Source: Candidatus Bruticola sp.
GTDB lineage: Bacteria; Vulcanimicrobiota; Xenobia; Xenobiales; Xenobiaceae
Assembly (NCBI GenBank): GCA_051874695.1
Contig: JBJEGC010000012.1
Span: 328-64,327, forward strand
Direction of reading: 5' to 3'
DNA: 64,000 bases
Shown here: piece after piece, positions 11,372 through 52,632 of the stretch
Position numbering within the stretch: the first letter of the stretch is position 1
Layout: every line of letters begins with the position of its first letter
Position numbers and translations under genes: made by a program
Notes under the pieces: generated by a model
Databases searched by the model: none
Seen by the model: only the letters and a program-made list of their open reading frames with translations
What the model was told of the DNA's origin: nothing

Positions 11372-11502
11372 GCTTCCCTAATTAGCTATTAGAAGTAATT
11401 TTTTCCTGCTTGCATACGATGGTTAAATTTCCAATTTATTTCAGCTTCAAGTAGTATAAACAATTTGTACAGGAAACTGTTTTGTTAGGGGGAGGGAAAA
11501 GT

Positions 11503-11883: not shown

Positions 11884-11898
11884 CAAGCTGAGCTGTCT

Positions 11899-13162: not shown

Positions 13163-14424
13163 AAAGACAAGGTCAGTTTGCTTATACGCTTATAGAGCTA
13201 ATGGTCGGTCTGTTTCTGATTTTTTCTGCTGCCAGTTGCTTATTTAGCACTTACGCTTTTGGAACTAAAGCTAATTTAGGCACCGATCGCTTCACTACAG
13301 CTATAAATTTAGGACAGGCCAAAATGGAAGAGCTGCAAAGCCGTCCCTATACATCTCTGCCTGATCGACAGCAGGGTAAATTCGCCCAACCTTACCAGAA
13401 TTACAGTTGGAGTGCCGATCTTTCGGATTTTAGTGAAGACTTCGCTTTGCTCACTCTTTACACCGGTTATAACGGGGCACCTCTATGTACTCTGCGTCGT
13501 TTGTTGGCTAAAGACTGCCCGTCTTCAATTTCTGCTCACATTTACGATAGTGAGGCGTCCTTTACCGATCGAACTTTTAGTTCTCCTTTTGGTAAATATA
13601 ATTTTTGGCTAACTCGTTCTGTCGAGCAGAAACTTGTAGGCAGTTTTCCCAAAGGAGAAATGGGAGCCATGTGCGGTTATCCCGCGCAAGGTATTGTCTG
13701 GCTGGCATATTTGCGCCAGCCTAAGCTGTGTCGGCTTATATTTGATGGCGACGGCAATCATATAGGAACTAAATTGGTTAATGTGCCTAAGCTGACTTAC
13801 GGATACGAAGCTGATATTGTCGATATGGCCGCCGATCAAATGGGGTGCTTTGTGTTTTGTGCCGATAGGGCTAATCAGTCAGTGTGGGTTCTAGATGATT
13901 CTCAGAATCAGGGACAGGTTTCATGGAGCAACGGTAGGTGTTTAACTAGTCGACTCAATCCTCTAAAAGATTTGCGATCTATTGCCTGCGATCAATATGG
14001 GACTTCTGCCTGGATCTGTGAGGGGCAGCCTCGTCGCTTGCGTCAATTCTATTGGGGCAGTTTACCCAAAAGTTTTGAGGAAAAAATCAATAATTATGCA
14101 GCTTGGGGGAGTTGTTTTGAGGTGCCTTTTTCCGGTTCTGGTCGCCTTCACAGTGTGGCCGTCAATAGTTGGGGATCGGCGGTCTATACCATCGACAACA
14201 ATTTTCTATATGGCTTGCTTTTTCAGGAGTGTAGCGGCCTTGGACAGTGGTCTAAAACACCTATGCCGTCTGAATTATGCCGTTCCGCTCCCAGAGCCCT
14301 GTGGGTCGATCCCGGCAGCAGCATAATTTATATCAATACTTTGTACGGAGGACAATGGGCTGCTAAACCACTCACTGATGGTTCTCTATCTCCGTCTTGT
14401 TTCAGCAAACTTAGTTGGAGGTAG
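13159..14424 (+). CDS. large pseudopilin-like protein with non-canonical prepilin N-terminus
   Basis: MKRQGQFAYTLIELMVGLFLIFSAAS looks like a GspI/PilV N-terminus, but with spacing G-Q-F-A-Y-T-L-I-E. ATGA-type start/stop overlap with the upstream gene. Confidence 0.55.
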   Translation: MKRQGQFAYTLIELMVGLFLIFSAASCLFSTYAFGTKANLGTDRFTTAINLGQAKMEELQSRPYTSLPDRQQGKFAQPYQNYSWSADLSDFSEDFALLTLYTGYNGAPLCTLRRLLAKDCPSSISAHIYDSEASFTDRTFSSPFGKYNFWLTRSVEQKLVGSFPKGEMGAMCGYPAQGIVWLAYLRQPKLCRLIFDGDGNHIGTKLVNVPKLTYGYEADIVDMAADQMGCFVFCADRANQSVWVLDDSQNQGQVSWSNGRCLTSRLNPLKDLRSIACDQYGTSAWICEGQPRRLRQFYWGSLPKSFEEKINNYAAWGSCFEVPFSGSGRLHSVAVNSWGSAVYTIDNNFLYGLLFQECSGLGQWSKTPMPSELCRSAPRALWVDPGSSIIYINTLYGGQWAAKPLTDGSLSPSCFSKLSWR

Positions 14425-15455
14425 TGTCTATGGAAAAAATATTTTTATATCGCCAGCTAGGTGTTATGTTAGGTTCAGGAGTTCCCATTGTTAAAGCCTT
14501 GGAGTCTGCTGCCGGGTGTTGCAAATATTATAAAGATAAGCAAGTTTGGTATGAAGCTGCCGAAGCGGTCAGTCGCGGAGAAAATCTGACTCAAGTTTGG
14601 AGTTCAAACCCTAACTATTTTGAAATGATAGAAACTGGCCTTATTAGAGCAGGGGAAGCTTCTTGTTCAGTAGCCGAAATATGTCTGTACATTTCAGAGT
14701 TTTTTTCATTTGAGCTGCATATGAAGCGGCGATTAAGGGGAGCTCTTCAGTATCCTTGTGTAGTTTGCTTCAGTTTTATTGTGCTGAGTATTATGATGTC
14801 ACTCTATATTGTACCTTCATTTTCTCCGGTATTTGCCGCTCTGACCGATTTGCCCTGGTCTACATCTGTTTTACTGCTTTTTATCAATTTGCTAAAAAGT
14901 CCGCTATTCTGGATTTTGATTGGAACTGCTATTTTAGGATTTTGGGTATTTTTTAAGTTTTACCGCCGGTTTGCTTTGGTCCGGCGCCAGTGGCAGCTGC
15001 TTGTTTTGACTACTCCGCTGCTGGGTAAAATAGTCAAAAATATTGTAACAGCTCGTTTTTGCCACACTATGTCTATGTTGGTGCGCAGTGGCCTGCCCTT
15101 AAACAATTCATTACAGATTGCCGGACTGTCTTTAGCCAACTATCCTTTGGCTGCAGCTTTAGAACTAGCTGCTGCGGAAATAGATGAAGGTTCGGAATTG
15201 AGCCAAGCGTTGCAGGCAGGAGGTTACTTTTCGTTATCATTTATAGCTGCTTTGAACGTAGGATCGGAATCAAGTTGCCTTGACTGCGTTTTTGAGCGTC
15301 TCAGCCGCTCTTATAATGAGCAGGTAAAGTTAGATATTGAGAAATTGTCAGTATATATAGAGCCTGTAATGATAGCCGTTATGGGAGTCGCCACAGCCGC
15401 AGTACTTTTCGCTTTATTTGCACCTCTTTATGAGTACATTAATAGGCTGACTTAA
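14415..15455 (+). CDS. type II secretion / type IV pilus platform protein GspF/PilC family
   Basis: Two T2SSF-type repeats (FLYRQLGVMLGSGVPIVKALE...; ...TARFCHTMSMLVRSGLPLNNSLQIAG...) and three hydrophobic helices. 10-nt overlap with the upstream gene. Confidence 0.8.
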   Translation: MEVVSMEKIFLYRQLGVMLGSGVPIVKALESAAGCCKYYKDKQVWYEAAEAVSRGENLTQVWSSNPNYFEMIETGLIRAGEASCSVAEICLYISEFFSFELHMKRRLRGALQYPCVVCFSFIVLSIMMSLYIVPSFSPVFAALTDLPWSTSVLLLFINLLKSPLFWILIGTAILGFWVFFKFYRRFALVRRQWQLLVLTTPLLGKIVKNIVTARFCHTMSMLVRSGLPLNNSLQIAGLSLANYPLAAALELAAAEIDEGSELSQALQAGGYFSLSFIAALNVGSESSCLDCVFERLSRSYNEQVKLDIEKLSVYIEPVMIAVMGVATAAVLFALFAPLYEYINRLT

Positions 15456-15481
15456 AGATAATTTTAAGGGGGAGGGAATGG

Positions 15482-16531
15482 ATGTCAGATAAACCTTTCA
15501 TTATTCTTTGCGATCAAGATTCTGCTATCGGAGACTTACTTTTTTGCACTTTGCAAAAATTAGCGGGGAGAATAAGCCGTCTTAGAGGGCGCTCTTCACT
15601 TCTGGCGGCTGAGTTGTTAGAGCGGCGTGCAGACTTGTTAATAGTAAACGGCACTGCTAAGGTCGGCGAATTGCTGCATATTATGCGTTGCTGTAAGGCA
15701 AAATATCCCGATCAAAAACAAATTTTTATTACTGCTGTTTTTGAAGGCTATGAAGAAGAGCTGAAAGCAACTCAATTGGACGGTTTAATTTTTAAACCGT
15801 TTAAGATTAACCAACTAAATGATATGGTAGCAGGTTTGCTTCCTAGCCTTAATAGAGCAAATCAGCAGGTCTCTGTCGATGTTATTAGCCGAATTGAACA
15901 ATTGAGCAAAATAAAAATAGCGGTTGTCATGCAATACTTGAAGTCTTGGTTAACCACACTACAAACTGTTTGGCACAACTTCAGTCTTAGAGAACTTGAA
16001 AATGAACGCCTTATAACTTTAAAAACTGTTTATCGTTTTTGTTTGTCCAAGTTTTCTAGCTACCGGTTTGCTTTAAAATTGTGGCATTATTTAGAGTTTT
16101 TGGAGCGTCATTATCTGCTTATCAAGGGAGGAGCCGATGTCGAGCGGGAGGCGCTAAAGTTCCATTACACTATGTTAAAGAGCAAACTGGAGAGAGGAAT
16201 GCAGGGCAAGTTTATCTCTATGGGTGAAGGAGACGGATTCGGGCCTAAGCTCGATCTTGTCCAATTCGGTCAGTTTTATGAGCGCTTGCGCCGTCAAGAA
16301 GTTAGCTTCGGCTGCTTTCGTTTAGCCGCTCAGGCTAGGCTGGTGCGATGGGCTTGTGATCGGCCTCCTATGAATGAGCTAAAATATTGGGCTCAAGGAC
16401 GTCGCTGTTTAGAGCGTCACAGACATTTATCCTACAAAGCCAGTGTAGCTGAAGCCGAAGCTGAGCTGAAGTTTTTGGCTGCTGCGAGTGAGCCGGGGCT
16501 ACAGGAGGTATTCAGCCAAGTTTGGGGATAA
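15482..16531 (+). CDS. receiver-like (pseudo-receiver) domain protein of unknown function
   Basis: The N-terminus IILCDQD...ADLLIVNG...IFITA...LIFKPF follows the CheY fold pattern, but has N where the phospho-acceptor Asp is expected. GGGGGAGGG RBS. C-terminal domain unknown. Confidence 0.5.
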   Translation: MSDKPFIILCDQDSAIGDLLFCTLQKLAGRISRLRGRSSLLAAELLERRADLLIVNGTAKVGELLHIMRCCKAKYPDQKQIFITAVFEGYEEELKATQLDGLIFKPFKINQLNDMVAGLLPSLNRANQQVSVDVISRIEQLSKIKIAVVMQYLKSWLTTLQTVWHNFSLRELENERLITLKTVYRFCLSKFSSYRFALKLWHYLEFLERHYLLIKGGADVEREALKFHYTMLKSKLERGMQGKFISMGEGDGFGPKLDLVQFGQFYERLRRQEVSFGCFRLAAQARLVRWACDRPPMNELKYWAQGRRCLERHRHLSYKASVAEAEAELKFLAAASEPGLQEVFSQVWG

Positions 16532-34920: not shown

Positions 34921-36135
34921 ATGGCTAAGTTTCCTCTTCTAGACGACAATTTCCCTCGTATAATTCCCTCTTTCAGACAGTTGGTGAAGATAATGTCTGA
35001 ATGTGTTGACGGTGGAGTGAGTTTAGGCTGCACCGCTTTTGAATTCCGCCAGTGTGATATTGCTCTTGGGACGGCTTTGGGCAATTTTATGGAAGTTTTG
35101 CGGTTGAAGGAACTTCCTCCTGAGAGAAATGAAGCAATTAATGAGATAGTGCTTCTTTTTACTCGCATGAGTTCGGAAATGGCTAAATTAGAGACTGCAT
35201 TGAGCATGGATGCTACGGCGGCCGCTGTTAATTGTGTAGCTAACATATACGAACACTTAAAAGACTTAGAAGAATTAAATATGGACCTGAAGGCTGCTGT
35301 AGGTGATAGCCATATTTATTCTGAAGTACCGGTTGTTGACAGTTTGTTGCGTGCGGGCAACTTTGTGCTGGAAACTAACGGCGCAGAGTGGGATGCTTTG
35401 AGTGCCCGTCTGGAAGCACTTATACCTCAGTGGAATGAAATAGTTTCCGGCAGCGGTCTGCCGGAGGAATTGATTCGCCACGACCATGCTTTGGAACGCC
35501 TGGTTGAAGTGCTTAACGAAAGAAATTTGGAGGCGCTTCCTGATGTTTTGGAAGAGGTCAAGTCTAGTGGTGAAGATTTGGTCAATTTTCAGGACAGCCA
35601 GATAGACGTCGAAAATACTTCCGTAGTGCTCTGCCCTTATTGCGGCAAGCCCATGTTGGGAGGAAGTAAAAAGTGCTTCTCTTGTGGAGCTAGGATGCCC
35701 GAAGAGTTTGAACGGGGCGGTTCTTCCGACAAAGAAACAGATAAGGGCGAGGCCATCAGTGGAATGCCTGAGTATGTACAACGCATTTTCGATGTTGCCC
35801 AAGAACTTCCCAACAATCCTAAAATGATACGTCCTTTCAAGAGAGCTGTGGGTGAGCTGCGCCGTCGTGTTGCCGATGCCAGTTCGCGCATCAATAAAAT
35901 GTCTTCTTCTAAGTTAAAAACTACTCCGGAAGAACGTGAAAATATTGACGGTATTATCGACCTCTCCAATACTTGTATAGACAATTTCTCCAAGGCAGTA
36001 GAACTGTTAGAGGAATTTGAACCTCCTGTTGATCGATTCCATATGCAGTGCGCCTTAGAGGTTATGGTTGAAGCTGTAAAGGAGATGCGCGGCATAGGTG
36101 GCTTGGCCCAAAAATATCGCAATTCGAAGAAATAA
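34921..36135 (+). CDS. hypothetical protein, paralog A of tandem pair with central zinc ribbon
   Basis: Aligns along its full length with the next gene: FPLLDDNFPRIIPSFRQLV / LPKLDDSFPKLIPHLRSFV, NLEALPDVLEEV / NLEELPAALESF, CPYCG...CFSCG / CPKCG...CPKCG. No signal peptide or TM helix. Confidence 0.6.
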   Translation: MAKFPLLDDNFPRIIPSFRQLVKIMSECVDGGVSLGCTAFEFRQCDIALGTALGNFMEVLRLKELPPERNEAINEIVLLFTRMSSEMAKLETALSMDATAAAVNCVANIYEHLKDLEELNMDLKAAVGDSHIYSEVPVVDSLLRAGNFVLETNGAEWDALSARLEALIPQWNEIVSGSGLPEELIRHDHALERLVEVLNERNLEALPDVLEEVKSSGEDLVNFQDSQIDVENTSVVLCPYCGKPMLGGSKKCFSCGARMPEEFERGGSSDKETDKGEAISGMPEYVQRIFDVAQELPNNPKMIRPFKRAVGELRRRVADASSRINKMSSSKLKTTPEERENIDGIIDLSNTCIDNFSKAVELLEEFEPPVDRFHMQCALEVMVEAVKEMRGIGGLAQKYRNSKK

Positions 36136-36187: not shown

Positions 36188-37384
36188 ATGCTAGATACGC
36201 TGCCTAAGCTGGATGATTCTTTCCCCAAATTAATACCTCATTTGCGCTCTTTCGTGAGCGGTTTAGAACATTGTATCGCTAATAAAGAACCTTTGCTCCA
36301 GCTGCGTGAGGAACTGCACCAGTGTGATGTGGTTATGTCCGCTTTTATACTGGCCTTCAAATACAGTGTACGCGGTTACGACTATAACGAAGAAGAATTG
36401 CCCCATATCGCCCAGGTTTATGCCGATTTTGAAGGAACAGCTGGCGTACTGTCATCCCTTATTTGCGATTTAAAGAGTGAAGATGCTGAAGGGGCGGTGC
36501 GTGACGTCAACGCCTTGGTGGAACAGCTTAAAGAAACCGAAAAGAGTTTGGCCAAGCTGGAAGAACTGAAAAAAGCCAAGACAAAAATGTCTGAGTTTGT
36601 CGGTATAGACAGTGTATTGAAAGCTGGCTTGGCCGTAGCTGAGGGGCGCCGTGAGTGGGACATGTTGGAAAATTGCTTGGATTCTCTCCGTCCGGCCTTT
36701 GAACGTTTAGTGGCCTGCAATTCCCTTCCCGACCATATAGAAGATTACTGTGAAGCTCTTGATGATCTGTTCAAAATTTGTGAACAGCAAAATTTAGAGG
36801 AACTTCCTGCTGCTTTGGAATCGTTTAAAGGCGCCAGCGAAATAATGATTGCCAAATATAATGAGGTTAAAGCCAGTAAACAAGCTAACGACAGCTCGCG
36901 CAGCTGGAATTGCCCCAAGTGTGGAGTTGACCTGGGAGAGTGGGATAAGCGTTGTCCTAAGTGCGGCTTGCGTCTGCCTGATCGCTCTGTCGTAGAACAG
37001 AATTTGAATGAATGTTGTAATTGCACAGATTTACCAGGTTGTGTGCAGATTATATTTGACAGTATAAATGGTCTTCGCGATGGCGGTGATTGTTGGAGGG
37101 CTTTCTCGGAAGGCTTGAGCGAGTATGCGGCTTTTGTAGAAGACTTAAAGTGTAAGTACGCTTCTTTGCCGGAAAGCGCCTTCAATAGTTCTTCTTCTGC
37201 AGGTGAGGCTTTAATTTTGTCCCGTGAAGCTGTTGAAGAAGGTTTAACTAAGCTTGAAAACGCCTATTACGTGTGTGAGCATATGCAGAATGGCGGAGAA
37301 GTTACCGATGAAGAACTGGATGCCGCTTTGGAAAATATGGTTGAAGGAGTAGAACAGACTCGTCAAATAACTAGTATGGTCTAG
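36188..37384 (+). CDS. hypothetical protein, paralog B of tandem pair with central zinc ribbon
   Basis: Same architecture as 34921-36135, at about 25-30% identity. The WNCPKCGVDLGEWDKRCPKCGLRLP ribbon lies between two alpha-helical domains. Confidence 0.6.
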   Translation: MLDTLPKLDDSFPKLIPHLRSFVSGLEHCIANKEPLLQLREELHQCDVVMSAFILAFKYSVRGYDYNEEELPHIAQVYADFEGTAGVLSSLICDLKSEDAEGAVRDVNALVEQLKETEKSLAKLEELKKAKTKMSEFVGIDSVLKAGLAVAEGRREWDMLENCLDSLRPAFERLVACNSLPDHIEDYCEALDDLFKICEQQNLEELPAALESFKGASEIMIAKYNEVKASKQANDSSRSWNCPKCGVDLGEWDKRCPKCGLRLPDRSVVEQNLNECCNCTDLPGCVQIIFDSINGLRDGGDCWRAFSEGLSEYAAFVEDLKCKYASLPESAFNSSSSAGEALILSREAVEEGLTKLENAYYVCEHMQNGGEVTDEELDAALENMVEGVEQTRQITSMV

Positions 37385-37559
37385 TAATTTGGCTTTTCAT
37401 GCAGTGTCTTTTCATTGGAGCACAAGTTTGAATGAGCTTCAAGGAGAAGACATTTTTTTTATAGTTTTTTGTCCGGTTACTGTCTGGCGGCTCTTTACTT
37501 TAGTGTAAAATGTATTGAAAATATAGCCAATTCTAGTTTTAAAGGAGAGGTATCTTCTC

Positions 37560-38579
37560 ATGAACGCTCTAACGAACGCTTCCTCCATGTCCGGTATGGC
37601 CAACATGGTTGGCCAAGATCTAAAGAATTCTCAGCTAATGTATTCTGGTATGGCCAATACCGATATTTCCGCTACTTCCGTTTTCGGTGGTGGTCAGGGC
37701 CTGATGGGTGTGTCCCAGGAACTGATCGATACCCAGATGAAGAGCCTTGAAGGGGCTGGCGACGTTGGCAAAACAATTGCTGCCGGTTTGAACTCCATTT
37801 ACTCTGGTGGCAGCTTTGAAGACTTCTTGCAGGCCACTATCGGGAGTATGGACATTAATCCTACTGTTGATAACGAGATTACTCAGGGAGCGACCGATAT
37901 GCTCGCTAAGTATCTTAAAACTTACTTCCCCGGTATGAGCGATGCCACCATTAAAGCTATGTGCAACTCTATGGTGGCTCAGTACGGCGACGTAGCCCAG
38001 GCTATGGATCTGAGCTCTTTGGCTTCCAGCGTAATCGGCTCTTCCGGTTTAAGCGCCAGCAGCTTAGGTGAGAGCGCTAGCAGTTCTAGCAGTGTAGGCA
38101 ACAATGGCAACTATGGCGCCAACAAAGGTGTAAGCGGTTTGCTGTCTGATGCCAGCTCCATGGTTGGTATGACTGAACAGTCTAATGCTTCTTCCATTAA
38201 CGCTATCACTAAGAAGAGCGGTATCAATTGTCAGACTACTCCGTGGTGTGCTGCCTGGGCTATGAACATGCTCAAAGATCACGGTGTGCTCGATACTTCT
38301 TCCTGCTCCAACGTTAACTATTGTCCGACTATTGTTAACTGGGCCAAGAAAGAAGACATCTGGGCTGGTCGTGGCTCCTATACTCCTCAACCCGGCGATG
38401 CCATTCTCTTTGACTGGCAAGGCGACGGTACTTCCGATCATATCGGTATTGTAGAGAAGGTTGCCAACGGTAAGGTTTACACCATTGAAGGTAACTCTTC
38501 CGACTCCGTGGCTAGGAGAAGCTACAGCCTTAATAGCTCCAAGGTAATGGGCTACATTAACTGCGCCGCTCAGAAGTAA
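37560..38579 (+). CDS. CHAP-domain peptidoglycan hydrolase/amidase-like protein with long low-complexity N-terminal region
   Basis: The C-terminal ...TPWCAAWAMNML...PQPGDAILFDW...SDHIGIVEKV...YTIEGNSSD has the Cys...His arrangement of CHAP domains. The N-terminal 220 aa are Ser/Gly/Met-rich with no signal peptide. AAAGGAGAGG RBS. Confidence 0.7.
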   Translation: MNALTNASSMSGMANMVGQDLKNSQLMYSGMANTDISATSVFGGGQGLMGVSQELIDTQMKSLEGAGDVGKTIAAGLNSIYSGGSFEDFLQATIGSMDINPTVDNEITQGATDMLAKYLKTYFPGMSDATIKAMCNSMVAQYGDVAQAMDLSSLASSVIGSSGLSASSLGESASSSSSVGNNGNYGANKGVSGLLSDASSMVGMTEQSNASSINAITKKSGINCQTTPWCAAWAMNMLKDHGVLDTSSCSNVNYCPTIVNWAKKEDIWAGRGSYTPQPGDAILFDWQGDGTSDHIGIVEKVANGKVYTIEGNSSDSVARRSYSLNSSKVMGYINCAAQK

Positions 38580-42473: not shown

Positions 42474-44288
42474 TCAGGACTGCGAGGCAGAGCGCACCTC
42501 AAACTCAAGACGCCATTTGGGATGGCCGTCTTGGCAGCACCATACCTCTAGAGTGCCCACTTCCGTAACGTGAGTTTCCAGGGTAACAGGAATCACCTTA
42601 CCGACTTCACCTACTTCGGCAGGTAAGGTAATCTGCAGAGGAGGCAGTTCTTCTATATCATCTTCCCAATCATCTATAAGATCGCCAATTTGATCTTGCT
42701 GTCGGCACGTAGAAGCTAAGAAGCGAAACTCTACCGGTTCCCCTACTACTAAACCGAAACTCCTACCTGGCAAACGTTCACGGGAATCTTCTTCCATACC
42801 GAATGGGGCTGCGCAGAGAGCTTTTATAGGAGGAATAAGGCCTGGCACAGCGGGCATGGAAGTTTCTATACCAAGGTAATAGGAGCGATTTGTTCCTGCC
42901 TTTATTCTTATGCCTGCTCCTTGACTGGCCAGCCCGCTGCGCACGGCACCGCGAGCTACGGCTAAATCATAATCGGCTCCTTCCAGCTCTTTTACTGGCG
43001 GTGCTCCTACAGAGGTCAGCCAGCTGTTTAATGTTTCTGTTAAACGACGGCGCAGGACAGGAGCTTTAAGGACGCCTCCGTTGAATAAAATTGCTGTAGG
43101 TGCAAAAAAAGGCAAGGAGTTGTCTTCAGGTTTATTGACGGTTAGGAAGCGAGCCAAGTGCTTGGTAATGGCCGGATTGGATTCAAACGGAAGGCCTAAT
43201 TCGCGCAAGCCACTTTGACGGGAGCGAATGGCCTGATCTTCTATTGAACATTTAGGGAAGAAACCGTCTACTATAAGTTGCTCGGTAAGTTGCTTGGAAA
43301 GAGGAAGCGTTACAGAGGAGGCAATCAGGCTGCTGCCACGCCCGGGAATGGTTACATTCCATTCTTCTTCTCCATCTTCTTGTAAGAGTTGTTCTTTGGC
43401 AGTGCGACAGGCATGAGTGAGGACTTGCATCTGCCAGCTATCTAATTTAGTTTTTCGCTCAGTTTTGAGTTTTTGCTGTAAGCAGACGGCTAAAGTAAGA
43501 TCCATGTTGTCGCCGCCTAATAAAATATGGTCGCCTACCGCGGAGCGTTCCAAAGATAAATTTCCGTCTTGATCAGTTACACTTATGAGACTGAAGTCAG
43601 TGGTGCCCCCTCCAATATCACAAACTAAAATTTTGTCGCCTACGGAAACTTGGGAACGCCAATCTTTTTCGCTGTTGCCTAGCCAGGCATAGAAAGCAGC
43701 TTGAGGTTCTTCCAATAAAGTGAGATTTGTGAGGCCTGCTTTATGAGCAGCCTGGACTGTCAGCTCTCTGGCAATAGTATCAAAAGAGGCAGGAACGGTA
43801 AGTACAATTTGTTGTTCGGCAAGCGGGGAATTCGGATGTTCAAAGTCCCAAGCAGAGCGCAAATGCTCCAAGTATCTAGCCGAAGCGTCTATGGGAGAAA
43901 TGTGTTCTACTTCATCGGGGGCATTCCAGGGCAGGATGGGGGCATTGCGGTCAGCTTGTTCACTAGAAAGCCACGATTTCGCTGAAGAGACAACTCTATG
44001 AGGAACTTTCACCCCCTGTTCACGGGCCATGTAGCCCACAACGCTGTTAGCCTGTTTGTTCCAAGGGAGTTCCAAGCTTCTGGGAGGCAGTTCATGGGCT
44101 CCGGGAAAATATAAAAAAGAAGGCAGAGTTTTGCGAGGTTCAACCGTGGCCGGATAAGTTAGCTGGGAAACGGCAAAATGGTGTATAGGTGGAGTCTCTT
44201 TGCGTGTTCTCTGTTCTGATGAAACAGCATCCGGATCGGACCAGGCCACGGCGCAGTTAGTCGTTCCTAAGTCTATACCTATAATCAT
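42474..44288 (-). CDS. divergent Hsp70/actin-fold ATPase family protein
   Basis: Phosphate-1 motif MIIGIDLGTTNCAVAW, VCDIGGGTTDFSLI, and LFNGGVLKAPVLR. Not canonical DnaK: it lacks the DnaK substrate-binding-domain signatures. Confidence 0.7.
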   Translation of the reverse strand: MIIGIDLGTTNCAVAWSDPDAVSSEQRTRKETPPIHHFAVSQLTYPATVEPRKTLPSFLYFPGAHELPPRSLELPWNKQANSVVGYMAREQGVKVPHRVVSSAKSWLSSEQADRNAPILPWNAPDEVEHISPIDASARYLEHLRSAWDFEHPNSPLAEQQIVLTVPASFDTIARELTVQAAHKAGLTNLTLLEEPQAAFYAWLGNSEKDWRSQVSVGDKILVCDIGGGTTDFSLISVTDQDGNLSLERSAVGDHILLGGDNMDLTLAVCLQQKLKTERKTKLDSWQMQVLTHACRTAKEQLLQEDGEEEWNVTIPGRGSSLIASSVTLPLSKQLTEQLIVDGFFPKCSIEDQAIRSRQSGLRELGLPFESNPAITKHLARFLTVNKPEDNSLPFFAPTAILFNGGVLKAPVLRRRLTETLNSWLTSVGAPPVKELEGADYDLAVARGAVRSGLASQGAGIRIKAGTNRSYYLGIETSMPAVPGLIPPIKALCAAPFGMEEDSRERLPGRSFGLVVGEPVEFRFLASTCRQQDQIGDLIDDWEDDIEELPPLQITLPAEVGEVGKVIPVTLETHVTEVGTLEVWCCQDGHPKWRLEFEVRSASQS

Positions 44289-44337
44289 AAAACGTTATCT
44301 CTCCTGGAATATTTTCCCAAAATCAGGTGACCGCAGA

Positions 44338-44841
44338 CTAAAGCTCTACTTCGGCAGGGCAAATAATATCCGAATCGTCATCGGTACTTTGAGGAAGATT
44401 AGCTTGGGCAAGGCGCCAACCTTGGTGGCGCAAGATACCTTTAAATGGTGGGTTGCCCTCAACTTTACCGACTAAGCGGATGCTGCTCGGATCGAAGCCT
44501 TCTTCTATTGTAATATCCGAACCTTCTTCCTCAGAGCGCACCGGTTCGAGTGTAAGATACTCTTTAAGCGCTTTGCGGCACCCTTTATATACGGTCGACT
44601 TAACGACTGCACCTATTTGCTCTTCAGGAACGTTCTCCAAGTCTTCTTGCAAAAAGTCGATGAGACGTCCTTCGCGCTGCAGCAAAGCCAGAATGCCAAC
44701 GGCACCAGGGTACAACGAGGGAGTACTGGCAGAAGATACGGGCTGATCTGCTTTGTCTTCTAACAATAGGGATAATTTTTCAGCGAAGGCACCATTGAAC
44801 AGAGCTTTAAAAAAAGCCTTGAAAGCTGTAATTATACGCAT
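44338..44841 (-). CDS. hypothetical protein (possible DUF2760-type partner of the Hsp70-like gene)
   Basis: 167 aa with an amphipathic N-terminus. Lies directly downstream of the Hsp70-like gene. The family assignment is from memory of this gene pairing. Confidence 0.35.
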   Translation of the reverse strand: MRIITAFKAFFKALFNGAFAEKLSLLLEDKADQPVSSASTPSLYPGAVGILALLQREGRLIDFLQEDLENVPEEQIGAVVKSTVYKGCRKALKEYLTLEPVRSEEEGSDITIEEGFDPSSIRLVGKVEGNPPFKGILRHQGWRLAQANLPQSTDDDSDIICPAEVEL

Positions 44842-45841: not shown

Positions 45842-46080
45842 ATTTTGTCTGATCTTTCTTTGCCGGGGCCGTTTATTTGTTAGGGACCCTTATGAAGTCG
45901 CTGCTTGTAGGCTTTCCGGTCAAATATGAGCAACCAAAGAGGGGGGCTGCAGCTTCAGGGCTGCCTTCGAAACTCGGTTGCACACTTTTCTTTCGTAAAA
46001 AAATAAGGCCGTTCCCCCCATTGTATAAGGAACGACCGTATACATACGCTTATGCTTTCAAAGTTTTGCGCAACGTAGAA

Positions 46081-46386
46081 CTAACGGCGGGCACCGCCAT
46101 GGTTCTTGAAACATTCGCTACAGTAAATAGGTTTGTCGTTGCGGGGACGGAAAGGCACTTTGGCCGTTTGGCCGCACTCTGCACAGATTACTTCGAACAT
46201 TTCACGAGTACCGTTGGAACGGCCTAAGTCGCCATTTTCGCGGTTACGTTTGTGAATGCGGCGGCATTCTGGGCAGCGCCGGGGGTCACTGGAAAAACCT
46301 TTAGACGCATAAAATTCTTGTTCTCCGGCAGTGAAGACAAAATCGTTTCCACAGTCGCAGCAGGTTAAAGTACGATCAGAAAACAC
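46081..46386 (-). CDS. double zinc-ribbon protein
   Basis: Two CxxC...CxxC units (CCDCG...CPECRR; CAECG...CSECF), each with FxAxEQxFY-like spacing. Confidence 0.5.
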   Translation of the reverse strand: MFSDRTLTCCDCGNDFVFTAGEQEFYASKGFSSDPRRCPECRRIHKRNRENGDLGRSNGTREMFEVICAECGQTAKVPFRPRNDKPIYCSECFKNHGGARR

Positions 46387-47196
46387 TCAAATTCCCTCCA
46401 ATAAGGAACATAGCCAACGGGAACGCGAGCTTCGTAAGACATATTTCCCACAGTCTGAACAACTTAGAAAACTTAGGACACTAACAAGCCAAATTCGCGG
46501 CTCGCGACGGTCCATATGGTCGGCATCAGAGTACTTTATTTGATTTCGCACTTAGACGCACTTCCAGCCCTTATTCCTATGTGTGCTGTAAACCGTTTAT
46601 TTTGTAGCTATGATCGCAATAATAACTGAAAAAAACTTGCAAAGTTTAAAGCGTCCGTATAGTTGCAGTCCATGTCTGCATAGCCGCAGAAAGTATCCTT
46701 TCGGCAATGGCACTGGAGACGAAAATATTACAGATTAAACTTCCAAACTCGTATTTACAAGTAAAAATACAATTAAATGCAATCAAAAAAACAATTAGCA
46801 CTAAGGAAAGCCGCAGCTTTAATTCCAATTCGCATTGAGATTGTAAAACGGCTAAAAAGAGTAGTCAAGGACTCGAACTGTCGAAATGTTCCCCAAAAAT
46901 TAATCTAAGAAAGTTGTTTTTCAGTAATTTAAGCTTATTCTGCACTAATAAAATCGATAAAAACGTATATTTATATTCGTTTCTGCAAATTGTACGTATT
47001 AATGTAAGCAGATTATTTTTTTTATTAGATAAATACGTAAGTATTTTCAGCAGACAGTTAGAGCTACGAGTGACATTTTTGTCTGTTTTTGTGAAGCAAA
47101 ATAACTGAATATAAGCTTTTGAAGATAATTCAGCTGTCTGCACCAGCTTGATTTGCTGCAAGTTTGGGCTGATGCAGGCAGTTAATGTCAGCATAA

Positions 47197-48912
47197 TCAC
47201 TGACTAATGAGCTTGCGCAAATCGCCATACTGTCTGATTTTAAACCAAGTCAGTTCTCCGTTAAGTAGGTATCGCCAGGCGACTGCGCCCATTTTTAGGA
47301 AGTTAGCTGCCCAAGCTAGTATAAACGGGACATGCCAGTGAAGCTTAAAATACTCACGGTGTTTGAGCAAAAAGCGGATAAAGCTTTTAGGAACGAATGA
47401 TTTGGAGACTAGGCAATAAACAGCCAAGTAAAAGCGATCTTCAGGGCTGCGCGGCCAGTCCATGGAGACGCGGAACTGCTTCCAAGCTTTATTGTTCAGC
47501 CCTTCCACTTGATTGGCATTAATTTTCCCTTCAGCCAAAAGGCGTTTGGTAATAGCTGTGCCGGGGAAATAATTTAGAGAGTAGAAATAAATGTCGTAGG
47601 GGCGTTCCAGAGCTAACAAAAACTGAGCTGTTTCTAGCTTCATTTCTTCCGAAGCCCAAGGGTTGTCAATAATAAGATCGTAAACCGCATTGATATTTAG
47701 TTCTTTATTGAATTTAGAAAAAGCCAAAATATTGTTGTTACCCGGCACTCTGTTATGTACGGCTAAGCTTTCTTGAGGAGAGCCACTCTCAATGCCAGTT
47801 TGTAGGCGTACTAACCCGGCTTTCTTGAGTTTCTCCAAGAAAGGACGTTTCAGCATGGGGGGAATAAGCATGCATTCGAAGGGAAGGTGAATGCGCTGCG
47901 GATACTTGGTGCAGAATTCATCTACCCATGCGGCCGGAGCAGCAAAAGCTGTATCATCATCTATTTTTACTCTGGCCAGGCGAGGAAAACGATCTTTTAT
48001 ATATTCAAGTTCACCCAATATGTGCTCAACTGAGCGCAAGCGGTAAAACTTTTGCTTATCTGCGGCAAATTTTTCGCGCAAAATAGATACATAACAGTAA
48101 GAGCAATTGTAGGGACAGCCTCTAGAACAATAAATGCGGTATTCTGCCGTACGTTTCCAAGGCTCTTCATTATGAATAGTTTTATCTTCAATATAAAATT
48201 TATTAAAGTCGTCTATGTCGGGATAGGGAAGCTCATCCAAATTGGCAATAAGCGGGCGCATATCATTTCTGAAAATTTGCCCGTTGATCTTGGCCCAAAT
48301 ATTGGGAATATTGCCGGTAAACTGATGATTGTATAGCGCTTCGCACAAGTCGATTAGGGGAGCTTCTCCTTCTCCAAGGCAGATGTAGTCTGCATAATCG
48401 AGAGCCCCTTCAGGTACAGCCGTAACATGAATCCCTCCCCAACAAATTGGTAAGTTTGGAAAACGTTCTTTTAAACGTACAGTGAGCTTTTCTGCCATGG
48501 AAAGCAGGCTGGAAATAAAACCTATACCTATAAAATTTGCTTTTTTCTCATCAATAATTTTGAAAACTAACTCTAGCTCTTCGGCGGAAGGCATCTCTAA
48601 TTTGTTGTTGACCCAGTCTCTCAGGAATATCAAATTCACTTCAAAACCTGCGCGGCGCAGAGCTGCCGATAAATAACGCAGGCCCGAATTTTCCACGCTG
48701 TACATGGCTATGAGGGCTACGCTAAATTTTTTGGGCTGACCGTACCAGCCTGATTTGGGAGCCCAAGGAGCTTGAGGATTTTGGACTGATGAACCTACGG
48801 CAGGATTAAAAACTGCTTCAGCAGATCCTGGAGAGGCTCCAGGAACTGAGGCAATTTGCTCTTTGCACTCATTCTGTATATTCTGTATAGTTTGGATAGA
48901 TGAATCTAACAT
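47197..48912 (-). CDS. B12-binding-domain radical SAM protein (class B)
   Basis: Cobalamin-binding region (...IGIGFISSLL...PICWGGIHVTAVPE...YICLGEGE), then YCSRGCPYNCSYC (CxxxCxxC). Confidence 0.8.
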   Translation of the reverse strand: MLDSSIQTIQNIQNECKEQIASVPGASPGSAEAVFNPAVGSSVQNPQAPWAPKSGWYGQPKKFSVALIAMYSVENSGLRYLSAALRRAGFEVNLIFLRDWVNNKLEMPSAEELELVFKIIDEKKANFIGIGFISSLLSMAEKLTVRLKERFPNLPICWGGIHVTAVPEGALDYADYICLGEGEAPLIDLCEALYNHQFTGNIPNIWAKINGQIFRNDMRPLIANLDELPYPDIDDFNKFYIEDKTIHNEEPWKRTAEYRIYCSRGCPYNCSYCYVSILREKFAADKQKFYRLRSVEHILGELEYIKDRFPRLARVKIDDDTAFAAPAAWVDEFCTKYPQRIHLPFECMLIPPMLKRPFLEKLKKAGLVRLQTGIESGSPQESLAVHNRVPGNNNILAFSKFNKELNINAVYDLIIDNPWASEEMKLETAQFLLALERPYDIYFYSLNYFPGTAITKRLLAEGKINANQVEGLNNKAWKQFRVSMDWPRSPEDRFYLAVYCLVSKSFVPKSFIRFLLKHREYFKLHWHVPFILAWAANFLKMGAVAWRYLLNGELTWFKIRQYGDLRKLISQ

Positions 48913-50084
48913 AGTGGAGGAACCTTTTTTATTATTTCTGCTAATTCTGAAGGTGAGGGTAGTTGCTTATCCGGAAAACGACGGAAGTTTAGGTTGAGGG
49001 CATTTATAAAAGATGAGCTGTTATGCATAGTTAAGGCTATTTCCCACCAGCAAGGACGGAAACAAGCTTGACAGTTGCGGCGTAGTTCCTTTATTTTGGC
49101 CAGATTGCGTTGGTGTTTATACCAGCTTATAAAGTTGTCTTCATATACTTTGGGGTGATCTTCAGGAGATTCGTCTTGAAAATGGCACATGGAACAGCGT
49201 CCGTCCGGGCTGACAGAGAAGCTGAGAGTGCCCGTTTGGCAGTCGATCCCAGTTCCCCAAAAGTTCGCATTGAGTGAAGCTGATTTCTCTGGGGAAGTCT
49301 CTTGACATCCGCACTTTAAGAAATTAATCATAGCCTTCAGATAAGGCATAGAGTTAAAAATAGGAGAATGGGACTGCTTTTTCAGCCTGCACAGATATTC
49401 TAACAGACAATCCAGTTTGGCTTCATCTTGGCTGGCAAAACGCATATCTTCCGAATCGGGGGAGCAGCTGAGAATTTCACCCTGATAGCTGTGCTTTTCT
49501 AAAGGCACCAAAGATAGATAAAAATTGTAAGCTTTGGCAATGGCCACCATTTGGGGAATGTCATTTATGTTGCGTGCTGATACCACGCAGTTTAATATGC
49601 CGGTACCTGATCTTTTCTGTATATAAGAAGACCAGAAACGGACTCGCTCAATAATTTTCGCCCAAATTTCCGGCTTATGACAAATTTCACTCTGCACTTG
49701 AGGATTAGGCGTATCTAACGATATAGATATGTGGCGCAGACCTGCAGCGGCTACCGCCTCATGTAGATCCGGAGAACCTGCTAGAGCATTAGTAAGAACT
49801 CGGGTTTCAATACCGTTATTGATAAAAGCAGCGACAATTTGCGGTAAGTCTGAGCGCAAAAAAGGCTCCCCGCCGCCTAATGATATGGCCGTTGTGCCCA
49901 GTTGACGGAAGTGGCTGGCCGCAGTCTCGATTTGTTCTAAACTGAGCTCCTCATCTTTGTTGCCTTTTTTCCATAAACCGCACATGGCGCAAGTTAAATT
50001 GCATCGATGAGTTAGACCAAAGTGTACGTAAATAGGCGTATTACCACCGATTATAGCTTTCAGAACCGGCCAAGGGTTTCTCAT
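48906..50084 (-). CDS. radical SAM protein with SPASM/twitch-like Cys-rich C-terminal domain
   Basis: HRCNLTCAMC (CxxxCxxC) and GGGEPFL. The C-terminal half has 9 or more Cys (CGCQ...CQTG...CSMCH...CQACFRPC). 7-nt overlap with the downstream gene. Confidence 0.75.
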   Translation of the reverse strand: MRNPWPVLKAIIGGNTPIYVHFGLTHRCNLTCAMCGLWKKGNKDEELSLEQIETAASHFRQLGTTAISLGGGEPFLRSDLPQIVAAFINNGIETRVLTNALAGSPDLHEAVAAAGLRHISISLDTPNPQVQSEICHKPEIWAKIIERVRFWSSYIQKRSGTGILNCVVSARNINDIPQMVAIAKAYNFYLSLVPLEKHSYQGEILSCSPDSEDMRFASQDEAKLDCLLEYLCRLKKQSHSPIFNSMPYLKAMINFLKCGCQETSPEKSASLNANFWGTGIDCQTGTLSFSVSPDGRCSMCHFQDESPEDHPKVYEDNFISWYKHQRNLAKIKELRRNCQACFRPCWWEIALTMHNSSSFINALNLNFRRFPDKQLPSPSELAEIIKKVPPLC

Positions 50085-51538
50085 AATTTTAAAATCTCCC
50101 AGCCGGCTTTTAATTTGCGGGCCATGTCGTGGAAATTTTTCAGCTCCAGCAGTTTGCGGAACATCTGTTTGGGACGCAGGTAGAAGCGTTTAAAGGCCTG
50201 ATCGCACAGAGAGCTTAATTCAGCAGCGCTGAAAAATTCCGTCCAGACTTGCGGCTTAAAGTTAGGATACGGATTGGCTAGGAATTGATCCCAATGATTA
50301 GGATCGAGTATGCCCTTCTCAATGCCCTGATTATAAACTAACGTGTTGGGATAGGGAGTCAAAATACCGAAGAGAGCGTAGTCCGGATCTAGAGAAATGG
50401 CAAAATCGACAGTTTTGTTTATTTCATCTAGAGAACTATCGTGGGGGCAGCCTATCATAAAGTAGCATACGGTGGTTAAGCCTTCGTCGGTAAGCATATT
50501 AAAAGCTTGGCGCACTTTCGCTGTAGTTAAATTTTTGTTGAGCGCTTTCATTCCCTCGTCGGTGCCAGATTCTACTCCGATATGCACCCGAGTACATCCT
50601 GCACTGCGCATGGCCTTCACTGTTTCTGGAGTGATACAGTTGGCTCTGGCTCTGATATTCCAGTTAACTTTTATGGAACGCTTTTTGATCTCGCTGCATA
50701 TGGCTAAAACGCGATCTTGGCGCACATTGAAAGTGTCGTCTACAATATATACTTCGTGGACTCCCAGCTTAGCACACTCAGCCAACTCGTCCACTACTGA
50801 TTCCGCACTGCGCCATCTCCAGGTTGTGCGCCCGGGGGTATTGCAGAATGAGCATTTGTAGGGACAGCCGCGGCTGGTTAACAACGAAGTGGCGACAGCT
50901 TCACTGCCTAGTACATAGCTGTATTTGCGATAATCGAGAATTTCACGCCGAGGAAAAGGCAAACTATCTAAATCGGCTATGGGGGGACGGGTTGGGGTTT
51001 GTACAATTTGCTGTTGTTCGTTTTTAAAATATATACCGTTTATTTTTTGCAGATTGTTGGCCAAAGTTTGGCTGTCGTACCCGGATTCTTCATTCCAGGC
51101 TGCTGTATGAGCGGCTACAACTTCTGTAAAAGCTTCTTCTCCTTCAAAAGGAATGCAGCCGTCTACGCAGCTGTATTTCATACACTGAGCGGGAAAATCA
51201 GAAACGTGAGGACCACCCCAAAATATTCTTACTCTGCTTCCCAGCTCTTCTTTGGCTATCTGGGAAGTTTGCATCATATCGATTAAATCGTGAGTATGTC
51301 CGGTTATACCTACAACTTGAGGTCGGTAATCAGCTATGATTTTGCGCAGGTGAGTGCTGTGAAGGTGGTCGGCCAGGCAATCGACTATGCGCACTTCCGA
51401 CTGAGAATATTTATGCAGATGAGCCTCTAGATACATTAATCCCAAAGGCGGTATAGTGTTTGTTTCAGCGTTGACTGTGGTAGGGACTTCTGAGGATATG
51501 CTGTTGTCGCGCGGCGGGTTAATTAAAAGTATCTTCAT
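50081..51538 (-). CDS. B12-binding-domain radical SAM protein (class B)
   Basis: MKILLINPP B12-domain start, then SRGCPYKCSFCNTP. 4-nt overlap with the downstream gene. Confidence 0.8.
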   Translation of the reverse strand: MKILLINPPRDNSISSEVPTTVNAETNTIPPLGLMYLEAHLHKYSQSEVRIVDCLADHLHSTHLRKIIADYRPQVVGITGHTHDLIDMMQTSQIAKEELGSRVRIFWGGPHVSDFPAQCMKYSCVDGCIPFEGEEAFTEVVAAHTAAWNEESGYDSQTLANNLQKINGIYFKNEQQQIVQTPTRPPIADLDSLPFPRREILDYRKYSYVLGSEAVATSLLTSRGCPYKCSFCNTPGRTTWRWRSAESVVDELAECAKLGVHEVYIVDDTFNVRQDRVLAICSEIKKRSIKVNWNIRARANCITPETVKAMRSAGCTRVHIGVESGTDEGMKALNKNLTTAKVRQAFNMLTDEGLTTVCYFMIGCPHDSSLDEINKTVDFAISLDPDYALFGILTPYPNTLVYNQGIEKGILDPNHWDQFLANPYPNFKPQVWTEFFSAAELSSLCDQAFKRFYLRPKQMFRKLLELKNFHDMARKLKAGWEILKL

Positions 51539-51600
51539 AAAATTTCCTATAATGAAAGATCACAATCGCTGACAGAATTAAGATAACTATTTATAAGCTG

Positions 51601-52632
51601 CTATTTTTGGCTCAATCTGCTGCCCATGGCCATAACCCACTGCATTATGGTTCGGTGATTGAGTGAGAAAAGCAGATTATATTCCGTAAAACAGGTTGCA
51701 GAGCAACTATGGCAGGGAAGAGGCTGGCTGCTGACTTGAGAGGCAGCTTCAGCAAATCCTAGCTCCAGAGCACTGGGACCGGGTTTATCTCCTATCAACA
51801 GAGAACAAGGGTAAAGACGACCGTCGGCGTCTATATTTAGATAAAACCGTCCGGCCCAGCATTTACTCCAGCCAATACCTCCTTGGACAGAAGTATTTTG
51901 GCTGAAGTCTTGCCAATTCAAAAGATGATCTAGGCATTGAATTGAATTGCCGATCCTGCGCCCCCTTAGTTTAGCTTCTTTTAGATAGCGCAGACAATCT
52001 TTATATTCTTGGTCGGAAGGACGCAGAGGGTTGTTAACGCCAAAATGTTCACTGTGATGCAGAACTTGAAATGTAGGAGTGAAGTTGTACTTGTCAGCCT
52101 GGTCTAGTATCCACTCTACTTTGTTAATGTTATTTGAAGTTAGTACAGTAATGGTCCAAAGAGCTACTTGACTGGCTGAGGCTGTTTCCACCGCAGCCAT
52201 AGCCTTGGCAAAAGATCCAGGTTCTCGGTTGGCATCGTGAGCTTCTTCCGGGCCGTCTAACGAAATAATTAGGTGGTCAAGTTCTTTCAGCAGAGAGGCT
52301 TTTTGAGGAACCAGATAGCCGTTTGTGTCTAAAGTTGTATATAAACCAGAGTGCCTGGCATAAGCGACCAGCTCTTCAATGTCACTGCGCAGTAAAGGTT
52401 CTCCTCCCCAGATTCCCAATCGCTGAATTCCGAAGTCGGCCATCTGTTTGATGAGTGTTTTTATCTGCTCCGTTGTTAGTTCAGGTTGTTTTCTGGCAGG
52501 AATTTTGCAGTAGCGGCAGCGCGACTGACAGGTGTTATTTGTGGCTATAGTTGCAAAAATAGGGCGAGGCGAACCAGTAAGGCGTCCCTTTAGAACCGCC
52601 GCTCCTGCTTTGGCCATGGTTATAAATTTCAT
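51601..52632 (-). CDS. radical SAM protein with SPASM/twitch-like C-terminal Cys cluster
   Basis: CQSRCRYC (CxxxCxxC), GGEPLL, and C-terminal CWAG...YPCSLL...CHSCSATC. Confidence 0.75.
   Translation of the reverse strand: MKFITMAKAGAAVLKGRLTGSPRPIFATIATNNTCQSRCRYCKIPARKQPELTTEQIKTLIKQMADFGIQRLGIWGGEPLLRSDIEELVAYARHSGLYTTLDTNGYLVPQKASLLKELDHLIISLDGPEEAHDANREPGSFAKAMAAVETASASQVALWTITVLTSNNINKVEWILDQADKYNFTPTFQVLHHSEHFGVNNPLRPSDQEYKDCLRYLKEAKLRGRRIGNSIQCLDHLLNWQDFSQNTSVQGGIGWSKCWAGRFYLNIDADGRLYPCSLLIGDKPGPSALELGFAEAASQVSSQPLPCHSCSATCFTEYNLLFSLNHRTIMQWVMAMGSRLSQK

Follow-up and report, generated by a model that had tools for sequence, protein, structure and literature searches.

A CHAP-domain wall hydrolase without a recognizable export signal in Candidatus Bruticola, and the N-terminal module it shares with other wall hydrolases of the Xenobia

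In nearly all bacteria, the enzymes that cut the cell wall cross the inner membrane through the general secretory (Sec) or the twin-arginine translocation (Tat) pathway, or else they are cargo of phages or of type VI secretion systems (T6SS). How would a wall hydrolase that carries no such signal reach its substrate? The question is raised by a gene at positions 37,560–38,579 (+ strand) of a 64,000-nucleotide stretch of Candidatus Bruticola sp. (contig JBJEGC010000012.1), termed here the window, which encodes a protein with a CHAP domain at its C-terminal end. Candidatus Bruticola belongs to the class Xenobia of the phylum Vulcanimicrobiota (formerly Eremiobacterota). The sole cultured member of this phylum, from another class, is a diderm with a thin peptidoglycan layer and a lipopolysaccharide outer membrane, and with such a cell plan a wall hydrolase would need to cross the inner membrane; one without a signal would therefore have to take a non-classical route or act only after the membrane has failed. 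The reading that we favor, at a rough probability of 45%, is that the gene encodes a resident, probably abundant and active endolysin-type wall hydrolase, in which the Sec signal may have been replaced by a lineage-specific N-terminal module found on a Xenobia-specific set of wall hydrolases, and that this module would bring the enzymes to peptidoglycan, or target them there, without the use of either Sec or Tat.

The gene and its catalytic part are laid out as follows.

37,560–38,579, + strand: coding sequence of the CHAP-domain protein, 339 amino acids (open reading frame (ORF) call, Pfam, protein database match)
38,115–38,576, + strand: CHAP (papain-like) catalytic domain, residues 186–339, with a predicted local distance difference test score (pLDDT) above 95 (Pfam, alignment, AlphaFold, Foldseek)
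38,247–38,249, + strand: catalytic Cys230 in PWCAAW, invariant in alignments
38,439–38,441, + strand: His294 in DHIGIV, invariant in alignments
38,487–38,489, + strand: Glu310 in TIEGN, invariant in alignments
38,493–38,495, + strand: Asn312 in TIEGN, invariant in alignments

An earlier note on this DNA, written from the letters alone, had called the product a CHAP-domain hydrolase, and this call stands. The 339-residue product is 100% identical to a “CHAP domain-containing protein” from Candidatus Bruticola sp. at NCBI, and Pfam CHAP (PF05257) covers residues 226–312 with 49.9 bits against a cutoff of 26 (E = 4.7e-13), the full catalytic domain spanning residues ~186–339 according to the family alignment and the AlphaFold model. 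Loss of the catalytic Cys/His pair, which the note had named as fatal to its proposal, is not what the alignments show: Cys230 and His294, together with Glu310 and Asn312, are invariant both among 21 catalytic domains and among 45 full-length homologues. A papain-like alpha+beta fold is supported by the AF2 model and its Foldseek matches (7cfl, 5d74, 5udm, 4csh, 3a2z). The best match in the PDB is the catalytic domain of the Clostridioides difficile autolysin Acd24020, and the domain also resembles the CHAP lysins Ly7917, PlyPy, PlyC and LysK-CHAPK as well as the Escherichia coli glutathionylspermidine (Gsp) amidase; sequence searches of the PDB with the whole protein and with a domain profile returned nothing significant. 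Among predicted viral structures, many CHAP, TIGR02594 and PlyB-like endolysins were matched with E-values down to 3e-9, and PHROG endolysin families matched at E-values of 8e-17 to 1e-11. By tblastn, identity to annotated endolysins of Firmicutes and Streptomyces phages was ~32–36%, and reached 44% with unannotated phage records. The NCBIfam model TIGR02594 aligns with residues 194–332 over nearly its full length (positions 2–130 of 132) at 27.8 bits, below the curated cutoff of 70.55, which places the protein as a probable relative of this family yet outside it. Published TIGR02594 domains include a holin-dependent phage endolysin and T6SS effectors of Stenotrophomonas (VgrG4-linked LysM+TIGR02594 proteins). 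On these grounds the domain is classed as an endolysin-type peptidoglycan peptidase or amidase with an intact active site and predicted activity.

Three further cysteines, Cys224 (38,229–38,231), Cys249 (38,304–38,306) and Cys335 (38,562–38,564), co-occur in the gut lineage of the family. All three are found in 30 of 117 sequences and none in 75, Cys255 being invariant besides; they may form disulfides, which would hint at an extracytoplasmic location, though the pattern is confounded by phylogeny.

A missing signal peptide is only as credible as the start codon it is counted from. The upstream region shows the following.

37,544–37,550, + strand: ribosome-binding site GGAGAGG, 9 nucleotides 5′ of the ATG (sequence inspection)
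about 37,495–37,559, + strand: near-invariant block of ~65 nucleotides that includes the ribosome-binding site (comparison of gut-lineage orthologues)

A TAG stop at 37,524–37,526 lies in frame 12 codons 5′ of the ATG, with no in-frame ATG, GTG or TTG between the two, so the hidden upstream start that the note had raised as a possible source of a signal peptide does not exist; because of this stop, the lack of an alternative start and the GGAGAGG site, the start codon is firm. The ~65-nucleotide block is near-invariant among five gut-lineage species, whereas the coding N-terminus diverges, and it is likely the conserved promoter and 5′ untranslated region of the gene itself. A consensus scan for promoters and terminators upstream of the gene gave nothing informative. 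We also considered a riboswitch or RNA leader, for example of the cyclic di-AMP type, 5′ of the gene and rejected it, with zero Rfam matches; neither tRNAs nor Rfam RNAs were found anywhere in the window.

From this start, the note's claim that the protein has no signal peptide is borne out by each signal that was looked for. The first 50 residues show neither a positive n-region nor a hydrophobic core and lack arginine, and the first lysine of the protein is residue 22, unlike a Sec signal. Residues 1–185 contain no arginine at all, which makes a twin-arginine motif impossible, and the first cysteine, residue 135, leaves no place for a lipobox. On the Hessa scale, the most hydrophobic 19-residue stretch within residues ~1–185 has an insertion energy (dG19) of +6.1 kcal/mol, compared with 7–10 for the cytoplasmic proteins of the window and with 0.2 for the signal peptide of the gene at 28849 and 1.2 for the FtsI anchor, two controls from the same window. 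The same organism thus does use ordinary signals, as seen in the signal peptide of the 28849 gene and in a lipoprotein at 3958–4782. The value of 6.1 also does not agree with the weakly hydrophobic N-terminal transmembrane segment of signal-arrest-release (SAR) endolysins. As to signals of dedicated machines, tryptophan is absent from residues 1–185, hence there is no WXG, and no LXG, PE or MIX-type Pfam domain was found; a YxxxD/E motif was absent from the N-terminal region on inspection by eye only. No rod-binding Pfam match or flagellar neighbor of the FlgJ type was found, and a Pfam scan of the protein gave no nonapeptide repeats of the repeats-in-toxin (RTX) type.

What stands in place of a signal is a composite region.

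37,560–37,709, + strand: uncharged leader rich in Ser, Met, Gly, Asn and Ala, residues 1–50, predicted disordered (AlphaFold model, composition)
37,716–38,003, + strand: predicted five-helix module, residues 53–148, pLDDT 70–85 (AlphaFold model)
37,887–38,027, + strand: conserved motif of ~47 residues, residues ~110–156, MLxxYLKxYFPGMSDxxIxxxCxxxxxQYGDxxxAMDxSSL
38,004–38,114, + strand: Ser/Gly-rich low-complexity disordered linker, residues 149–185 (AlphaFold model, local entropy)

The note had described a low-complexity N-terminus of 220 residues, of which a part remains. The extension measures ~185 residues, the catalytic domain beginning at ~186, and residues 53–148 are predicted to be helical, with zero Pfam matches. 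When local entropy was taken over 40 residues at a time, only residues ~141–200 fell below the 1st percentile of the proteins of the window and are truly of low complexity, residues 41–140 being ordinary. Against the one other Bruticola species compared, dN/dS was 0.16 for the N-terminal module vs. 0.02 for the CHAP domain, values that are approximate at a dS of ~1, and the leader (residues 1–50) gave 0.19 against the orthologue at locus L020 (numbers with L denote loci of the family collected here, those with P its proteins). The module is thus under purifying selection.

The next question is whether the gene belongs to this genome. On the same strand upstream lie dnaG, rpoD, a gene for a secreted protein, a DEAD-box helicase, a PRK-like kinase, an unknown protein and two zinc-ribbon proteins, ZnR1 and ZnR2; downstream and convergent are a heparinase II/III-like protein, a DegT aminotransferase and an Hsp70-like/DUF2760 pair, beyond which the dcw cluster begins. 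The order rpoD, DEAD helicase, PRK-like, ZnR1, ZnR2, CHAP and heparinase-like is kept in seven or more further gut Xenobia species, and the gene is a syntenic, vertically inherited chromosomal one. A recently acquired foreign lysin or a prophage remnant might still be suspected from the resemblance of the domain to phage lysins and from the G+C content at third codon positions (GC3), which the note had correctly seen to be richer than in the neighbors: 0.547 vs. 0.427±0.034 for the 44 other genes of the window (z = 3.5), with only 0.44 expected from the amino acid composition of the protein. This excess amounts to a near-total avoidance of A-ending codons (TCA 0/50, GCA 0/33, ATA 0/19, GGA 1/38), which recurs in the gut-lineage orthologues with z(A3) of −3 to −4.3 at genome GC3 values of 0.37–0.72. 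Since the avoidance is common to orthologues whatever the genome GC, it does not point to a foreign origin; the 64-kb window holds no phage or mobile-element genes, in agreement with the note, and a scan of 2.9 million viral contigs (IMG/VR) gave one distant match only. Synteny and shared codon bias effectively refute such an origin, which we regard as barely credible. The bias is instead read as translational selection, that is, high expression, which we infer from codon usage alone.

The resident gene is part of a family whose N-termini are as unusual as its own. A homology search with the CHAP protein returned 1801 homologues, the best of them from metagenome-assembled genomes (MAGs) of Xenobia, UBP9, Eremiobacterota or Vulcanimicrobiota; the C-terminal ~145 residues are 60–69% identical across the class, and the N-termini are hypervariable. 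In an exhaustive hidden Markov model search over 1.84 billion representative proteins, the tight subfamily comprises 44 representatives at 50% identity (E<1e-30), beyond which come ordinary CHAP proteins, and CHAP relatives with normal signal peptides occur only there, outside the tight Xenobia subfamily. Among 185,579 GTDB species genomes, 43 loci were found, with up to four paralogues per genome; all 43 look to be of Xenobia/Vulcanimicrobiota type, the deviating labels on some being taken as misassignments. Neither the family nor the module, nor any wall hydrolase of the Eremiobacterota that lacks a signal, was described in the literature that we searched.

In almost all members, the N-terminus is uncharged, with an abundance of Gly, Ser, Met, Ala, Gln and Asn (pooled composition G 19%, S 14%, M 10%, K+R 2.2%). 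Among 120 homologues, the minimum dG19 of the N-terminal region has a median of 7.1 and is below 2 in only two. By these Hessa-scale values, the Met/Gln-rich helices of most members are not membrane anchors, and that reading was dropped for them. The gene starts of relatives are also sound where they were checked: in 11 of 17, an in-frame stop is reached upstream before any other start codon, and most of the 17 are preceded by a GAGGTG-like site.

The extension is not confined to CHAP enzymes. At locus L001 the gene order is ZnR, CHAP, a second CHAP, NlpC/P60 and SLT, the four hydrolase genes following one another with gaps of only ~190–230 bp, and all four products open with “M..G....MQ[FY]GM(S/G)GM…” repeats followed by a Met/Gln-rich helix; the arrangement recurs in L019 and L022. 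The module is also borne by a GH19-like lysozyme (L047) and a GH73-like glucosaminidase (L044), whose scores fall slightly short of the Pfam cutoffs, and some family members are GH73-CHAP fusions. The gut lineage has, in place of the Met-rich helix, the helical module with the ~47-residue motif (…YLKxYFPGMSDxxI…QYGDxxxAMDxSSL), of which some relatives carry two or three copies. A second and different Cys/His (CHAP-like) hydrolase, encoded just downstream in sister genomes, shares this motif; its gene is absent from the 64-kb window. Within 0.9 Mb of Xenobia DNA around family members, we counted 36 ORFs with a module-type N-terminus: 26 CHAP, 3 NlpC/P60, 3 SLT, 1 GH19-like, 1 GH73-like, 1 unassigned and 1 that is likely a spurious shadow ORF. 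In this sample of CHAP neighborhoods, the module thus appears to be specific to wall hydrolases, and at least six catalytic kinds of Xenobia wall hydrolase carry it: CHAP, second CHAP-like, NlpC/P60, SLT, GH19-like and GH73-like.

This range of enzymes bears on a further explanation, namely that the protein is an amidase of the cytoplasm whose substrate is soluble (recycled muropeptides, for instance, or a glutathionylspermidine-like conjugate) and which has no need of export. This would fit the missing export signal, and the E. coli Gsp amidase, a cytoplasmic CHAP enzyme, is indeed among the fold matches. The closest relatives in sequence and fold are, however, wall-degrading lysins and not the Gsp amidase, and the same module is borne by SLT, GH19-like and GH73-like enzymes that require polymeric glycan strands. 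We consider this explanation quite improbable.

The likeness to phage lysins leads to a more serious alternative, an endolysin-like autolysin held in the cytoplasm that reaches the wall only when the membrane is permeabilized, as a form of programmed lysis. The enzyme would accumulate in the cell, where the disordered Met/Gly-rich region perhaps keeps it inert or condensed; the trigger could be a holin encoded elsewhere or stress, and lysis would free DNA, particles or public goods. The CHAP and TIGR02594-type endolysins (LysK CHAPK, Ly7917, PlyPy, PlyC and gp75 of Pseudomonas phage ZC01) are the best matches in sequence and fold, and share with the Bruticola protein the papain-like CHAP fold, the Cys-His-Glu/Asn set and the lack of a signal peptide. 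They work in just this way, the published TIGR02594 examples including a holin-dependent one, and here too no export signal of any known kind was seen; moreover, the lytic transglycosylase, amidase and peptidase types that carry the module together resemble a complete lysis cocktail. Unlike those endolysins, however, the Bruticola gene is chromosomal, syntenic and inherited within the class, its family is nearly absent from viral contigs, and its 185-residue N-terminal module is matched by no phage lysin. No holin or spanin genes were found in the window, and across 56 family genes examined no conserved holin-like small membrane ORF lay within 2 kb: 34 have no small membrane ORF at all in this range, and most of the ones found at the others are antisense shadow ORFs. 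The genes are scattered in housekeeping contexts, one relative is fused to RTX secretion repeats, and strong purifying selection, several paralogues in each genome and a shared codon bias that speaks for high and constant expression would not be expected of a suicide function. We hold cytoplasmic retention until lysis to be unlikely.

SAR endolysins offer a related comparison. A few relatives (P0054, P0084 and P0115) have, like them, weakly hydrophobic Gly-rich N-terminal helices, whereas the protein of the window (dG19 6.1), along with the family median, is too polar for membrane insertion, and its N-terminus lacks the positive charges. The Firmicute autolysins AtlA of Enterococcus and CwpFM of Bacillus cereus, and Acd24020 of C. 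difficile, resemble it in carrying a low-complexity extension before the catalytic domain and in being housekeeping wall hydrolases, but theirs start with a normal Sec signal peptide.

The note had likened the protein to cargo of dedicated secretion systems and to phage lysins. Its observation of an endolysin-type hydrolase without a signal held up and extends to the whole clade; the secretion and phage routes it named find no support in the gene context. The explanation that remains from this list is an antibacterial effector of a known machine, be it T6SS, type VII (T7SS), contractile injection, type III-like (T3SS-like) or type I secretion, with the N-terminus as loading signal and ZnR as adaptor or chaperone. 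T7SS and T3SS handle modular substrates, such as mycobacterial PE-PGRS enzymes like LipY, LXG toxins and flagellar FlgJ, in which a signal-less helical or disordered targeting region and a Gly/Ser linker precede the enzyme at the C-terminal end; in some cases, the adjoining gene encodes a partner in the cytoplasm. The layout here, a disordered N-terminus, helices, a linker and an enzyme, resembles cargo of T3SS, T7SS or extracellular contractile injection systems, a cytoplasmic helical protein is encoded upstream, and an orphan FlhA C-domain protein lies 34 kb away in the window. One relative also combines RTX repeats with an effector-type M91 peptidase, and TIGR02594-type T6SS effectors exist in Stenotrophomonas. 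With the T6SS amidase effectors (Tae-type and VgrG4-linked of Stenotrophomonas), the protein would share a signal-less member of the NlpC/P60-CHAP superfamily and the Sec-free delivery that we propose.

Against such a machine speaks the gene context. No genes for VgrG, Hcp, PAAR or Rhs, for EssC, WXG or other T7SS parts, for contractile tails (including the sheath), for a T3SS core or for immunity proteins were found in the 64-kb window; six other annotated homologue contexts held no secretion-machine, holin or immunity genes, and in the window, L001–L006 and L050–L052 there was no VgrG/PAAR/Hcp linkage and no adjoining immunity gene. No copy has an immunity gene beside it, and in L001 only the short gaps noted above separate the hydrolase genes. 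Unlike polymorphic T6SS amidases, the catalytic domain is extremely conserved across the class and not diversifying, and unlike the T7SS and T3SS substrates the protein has no PE, LXG, WXG, MIX-type or rod-binding domain, nor does it carry the RTX repeats of its relative. Delivery by one of these machines seems improbable on balance.

The relative in question, P0130 (L023, 72–6038), is a protein of 1988 residues in which four CHAP domains are joined to RTX repeats and Peptidase_M91, an architecture that looks type I secretion-like and would link the CHAP domain to one-step secretion. It is followed at L023 6325–10179 by a 1284-residue RTX+M91 protein, in a rumen/gut Xenobia MAG. The same MAG has four loci with the family CHAP domain, including giant CHAP proteins of 826–923 residues (L014, L021, L026). 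At L052 (2134–3243 and 10454–13606), an environmental CHAP paralogue lies among genes for Peptidase_S8, polyhydroxybutyrate (PHB) depolymerase and a GH64 beta-1,3-glucanase, a gene set suggestive of secreted lytic enzymes.

We thus return to non-Sec, non-Tat delivery of a resident wall hydrolase. The proposed module would consist of an uncharged disordered leader rich in Met, Gly, Ser and Asn, a helical segment of either the Met/Gln-rich or the “YLKxYFPGMSD” type, and a Ser/Gly linker. Two variants can be envisaged: the enzyme may remodel the wall of its producer, or it may be secreted in one step and lyse neighboring bacteria. The second would explain the missing immunity genes, because the enzymes would never be in the periplasm of the producer, and it would also fit P0130 because of the joining of four CHAP domains with RTX repeats and Peptidase_M91. 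A stronger form, in which the module is the recognition signal of an undescribed Sec/Tat-independent export pathway for Xenobia wall hydrolases with ZnR proteins as possible adaptors, is a tentative idea that we put forward with more doubt than belief.

The partner that might act in the cytoplasm is one of two adjoining genes.

36,188–37,384, + strand: ZnR2, a zinc-ribbon helical-bundle protein of 398 amino acids without signal peptide or transmembrane segment, directly 5′ of the CHAP gene
34,921–36,135, + strand: ZnR1, 404 amino acids, a tandem paralogue of ZnR2 with ~25% identity (sequence comparison)

For both, the prediction is a soluble helical bundle, in the middle of which lies a CxxC…CxxC ribbon. 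A ZnR homologue lies directly 5′ of CHAP in all gut-lineage loci, as two tandem paralogues, and at ~31% identity also in the L001/L016/L019/L022 lineage, whose gene order is otherwise not the same; it is absent beside other CHAP paralogues and in other lineages. The homology search found just 9 close, unnamed homologues, and no NCBIfam or PHROG match beyond the zinc ribbon. ZnR2 is a possible cytoplasmic partner of the CHAP protein. The ZnR family is apparently restricted to the Xenobia, with weaker paralogues nearby in L001, L019 and L022.

Several points weigh against this account. It names no export machinery and no cleavage site, and export itself, its route, the high expression (from codon usage) and the role of ZnR are all things that we infer, exit from the cytoplasm included. 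No consensus signal motif emerged from the N-termini. Their only feature is a weak enrichment of [NQ][FY], in 36 of 132 (27%) vs. 52 of 745 controls (7%), which we do not take as a defined signal. In P0054, P0084 and P0115, the weakly hydrophobic Gly/Met-rich helices (dG 1.2–2.6) could be atypical signal anchors, in which case “non-Sec” would not be universal. The module census was drawn from loci fetched around CHAP genes and is hence biased to them; a search with the N-terminal 178 residues alone gave no scoring match, probably owing to composition filtering, and fusion partners of the module were therefore surveyed only locally. As for ZnR, its adjacency is limited to two lineages, about 12 of 53 loci, and its AF2 model gave only generic helical-bundle matches (E>0.09), none of them informative about fold. 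A T-run after ZnR2, 5′ of the ~65-nucleotide conserved block, together with this promoter-like block suggests that the CHAP gene is its own transcription unit, separate from ZnR2, so that the link between the two would be positional only.

The uncultured class Xenobia includes gut members from primates, humans and ruminants, and the proposal would have consequences beyond one gene. If the module is an export or targeting signal, it would represent a new route of protein delivery or a new control of autolysins, and phylogenetic profiling could use its sequence to trace the machinery. Should the enzymes instead be secreted and lyse neighbors, this would indicate a bacteriolytic lifestyle of gut Xenobia, which could then yield new lysins. 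Apart from this, the module is an instance of Met-rich, low-complexity sequence that occurs naturally in bacteria.

Other features of the window are recorded here in their own right. At 2408–3883 (− strand) lies a gene for a soluble protein of 491 residues whose match to flagellar FlhA is confined to the C-domain in the cytoplasm (TIGR01398 positions 334–670, 236 bits; Pfam FHIPEP 326–655); with no transmembrane segment and no flagellar neighbors, it is an orphan docking domain of the type III export gate. The protein encoded at 4892–7987 (+ strand), 1031 residues long, has an N-terminal MerR-type helix-turn-helix followed by a long SMC/Rad50-like coiled coil. Six genes at 11482–16531 (+ strand), a GspF/PilC-type platform protein (14415–15455) and five without a family match, may form a divergent type IV pilus or a system like type II secretion. 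A run of four radical-SAM genes occupies 47197–52632 (− strand), and B12-binding domains are present in two of their products. The adjoining 1.35 kb (45842–47196) holds no convincing ORF, tRNA or Rfam match, and in relatives a zf_Tbcl gene is found at this position. The Hsp70-like protein (604 residues, with a partial HSP70/MreB match) and DUF2760, encoded at 42474–44841 (− strand), form a pair that is kept in sister genomes.

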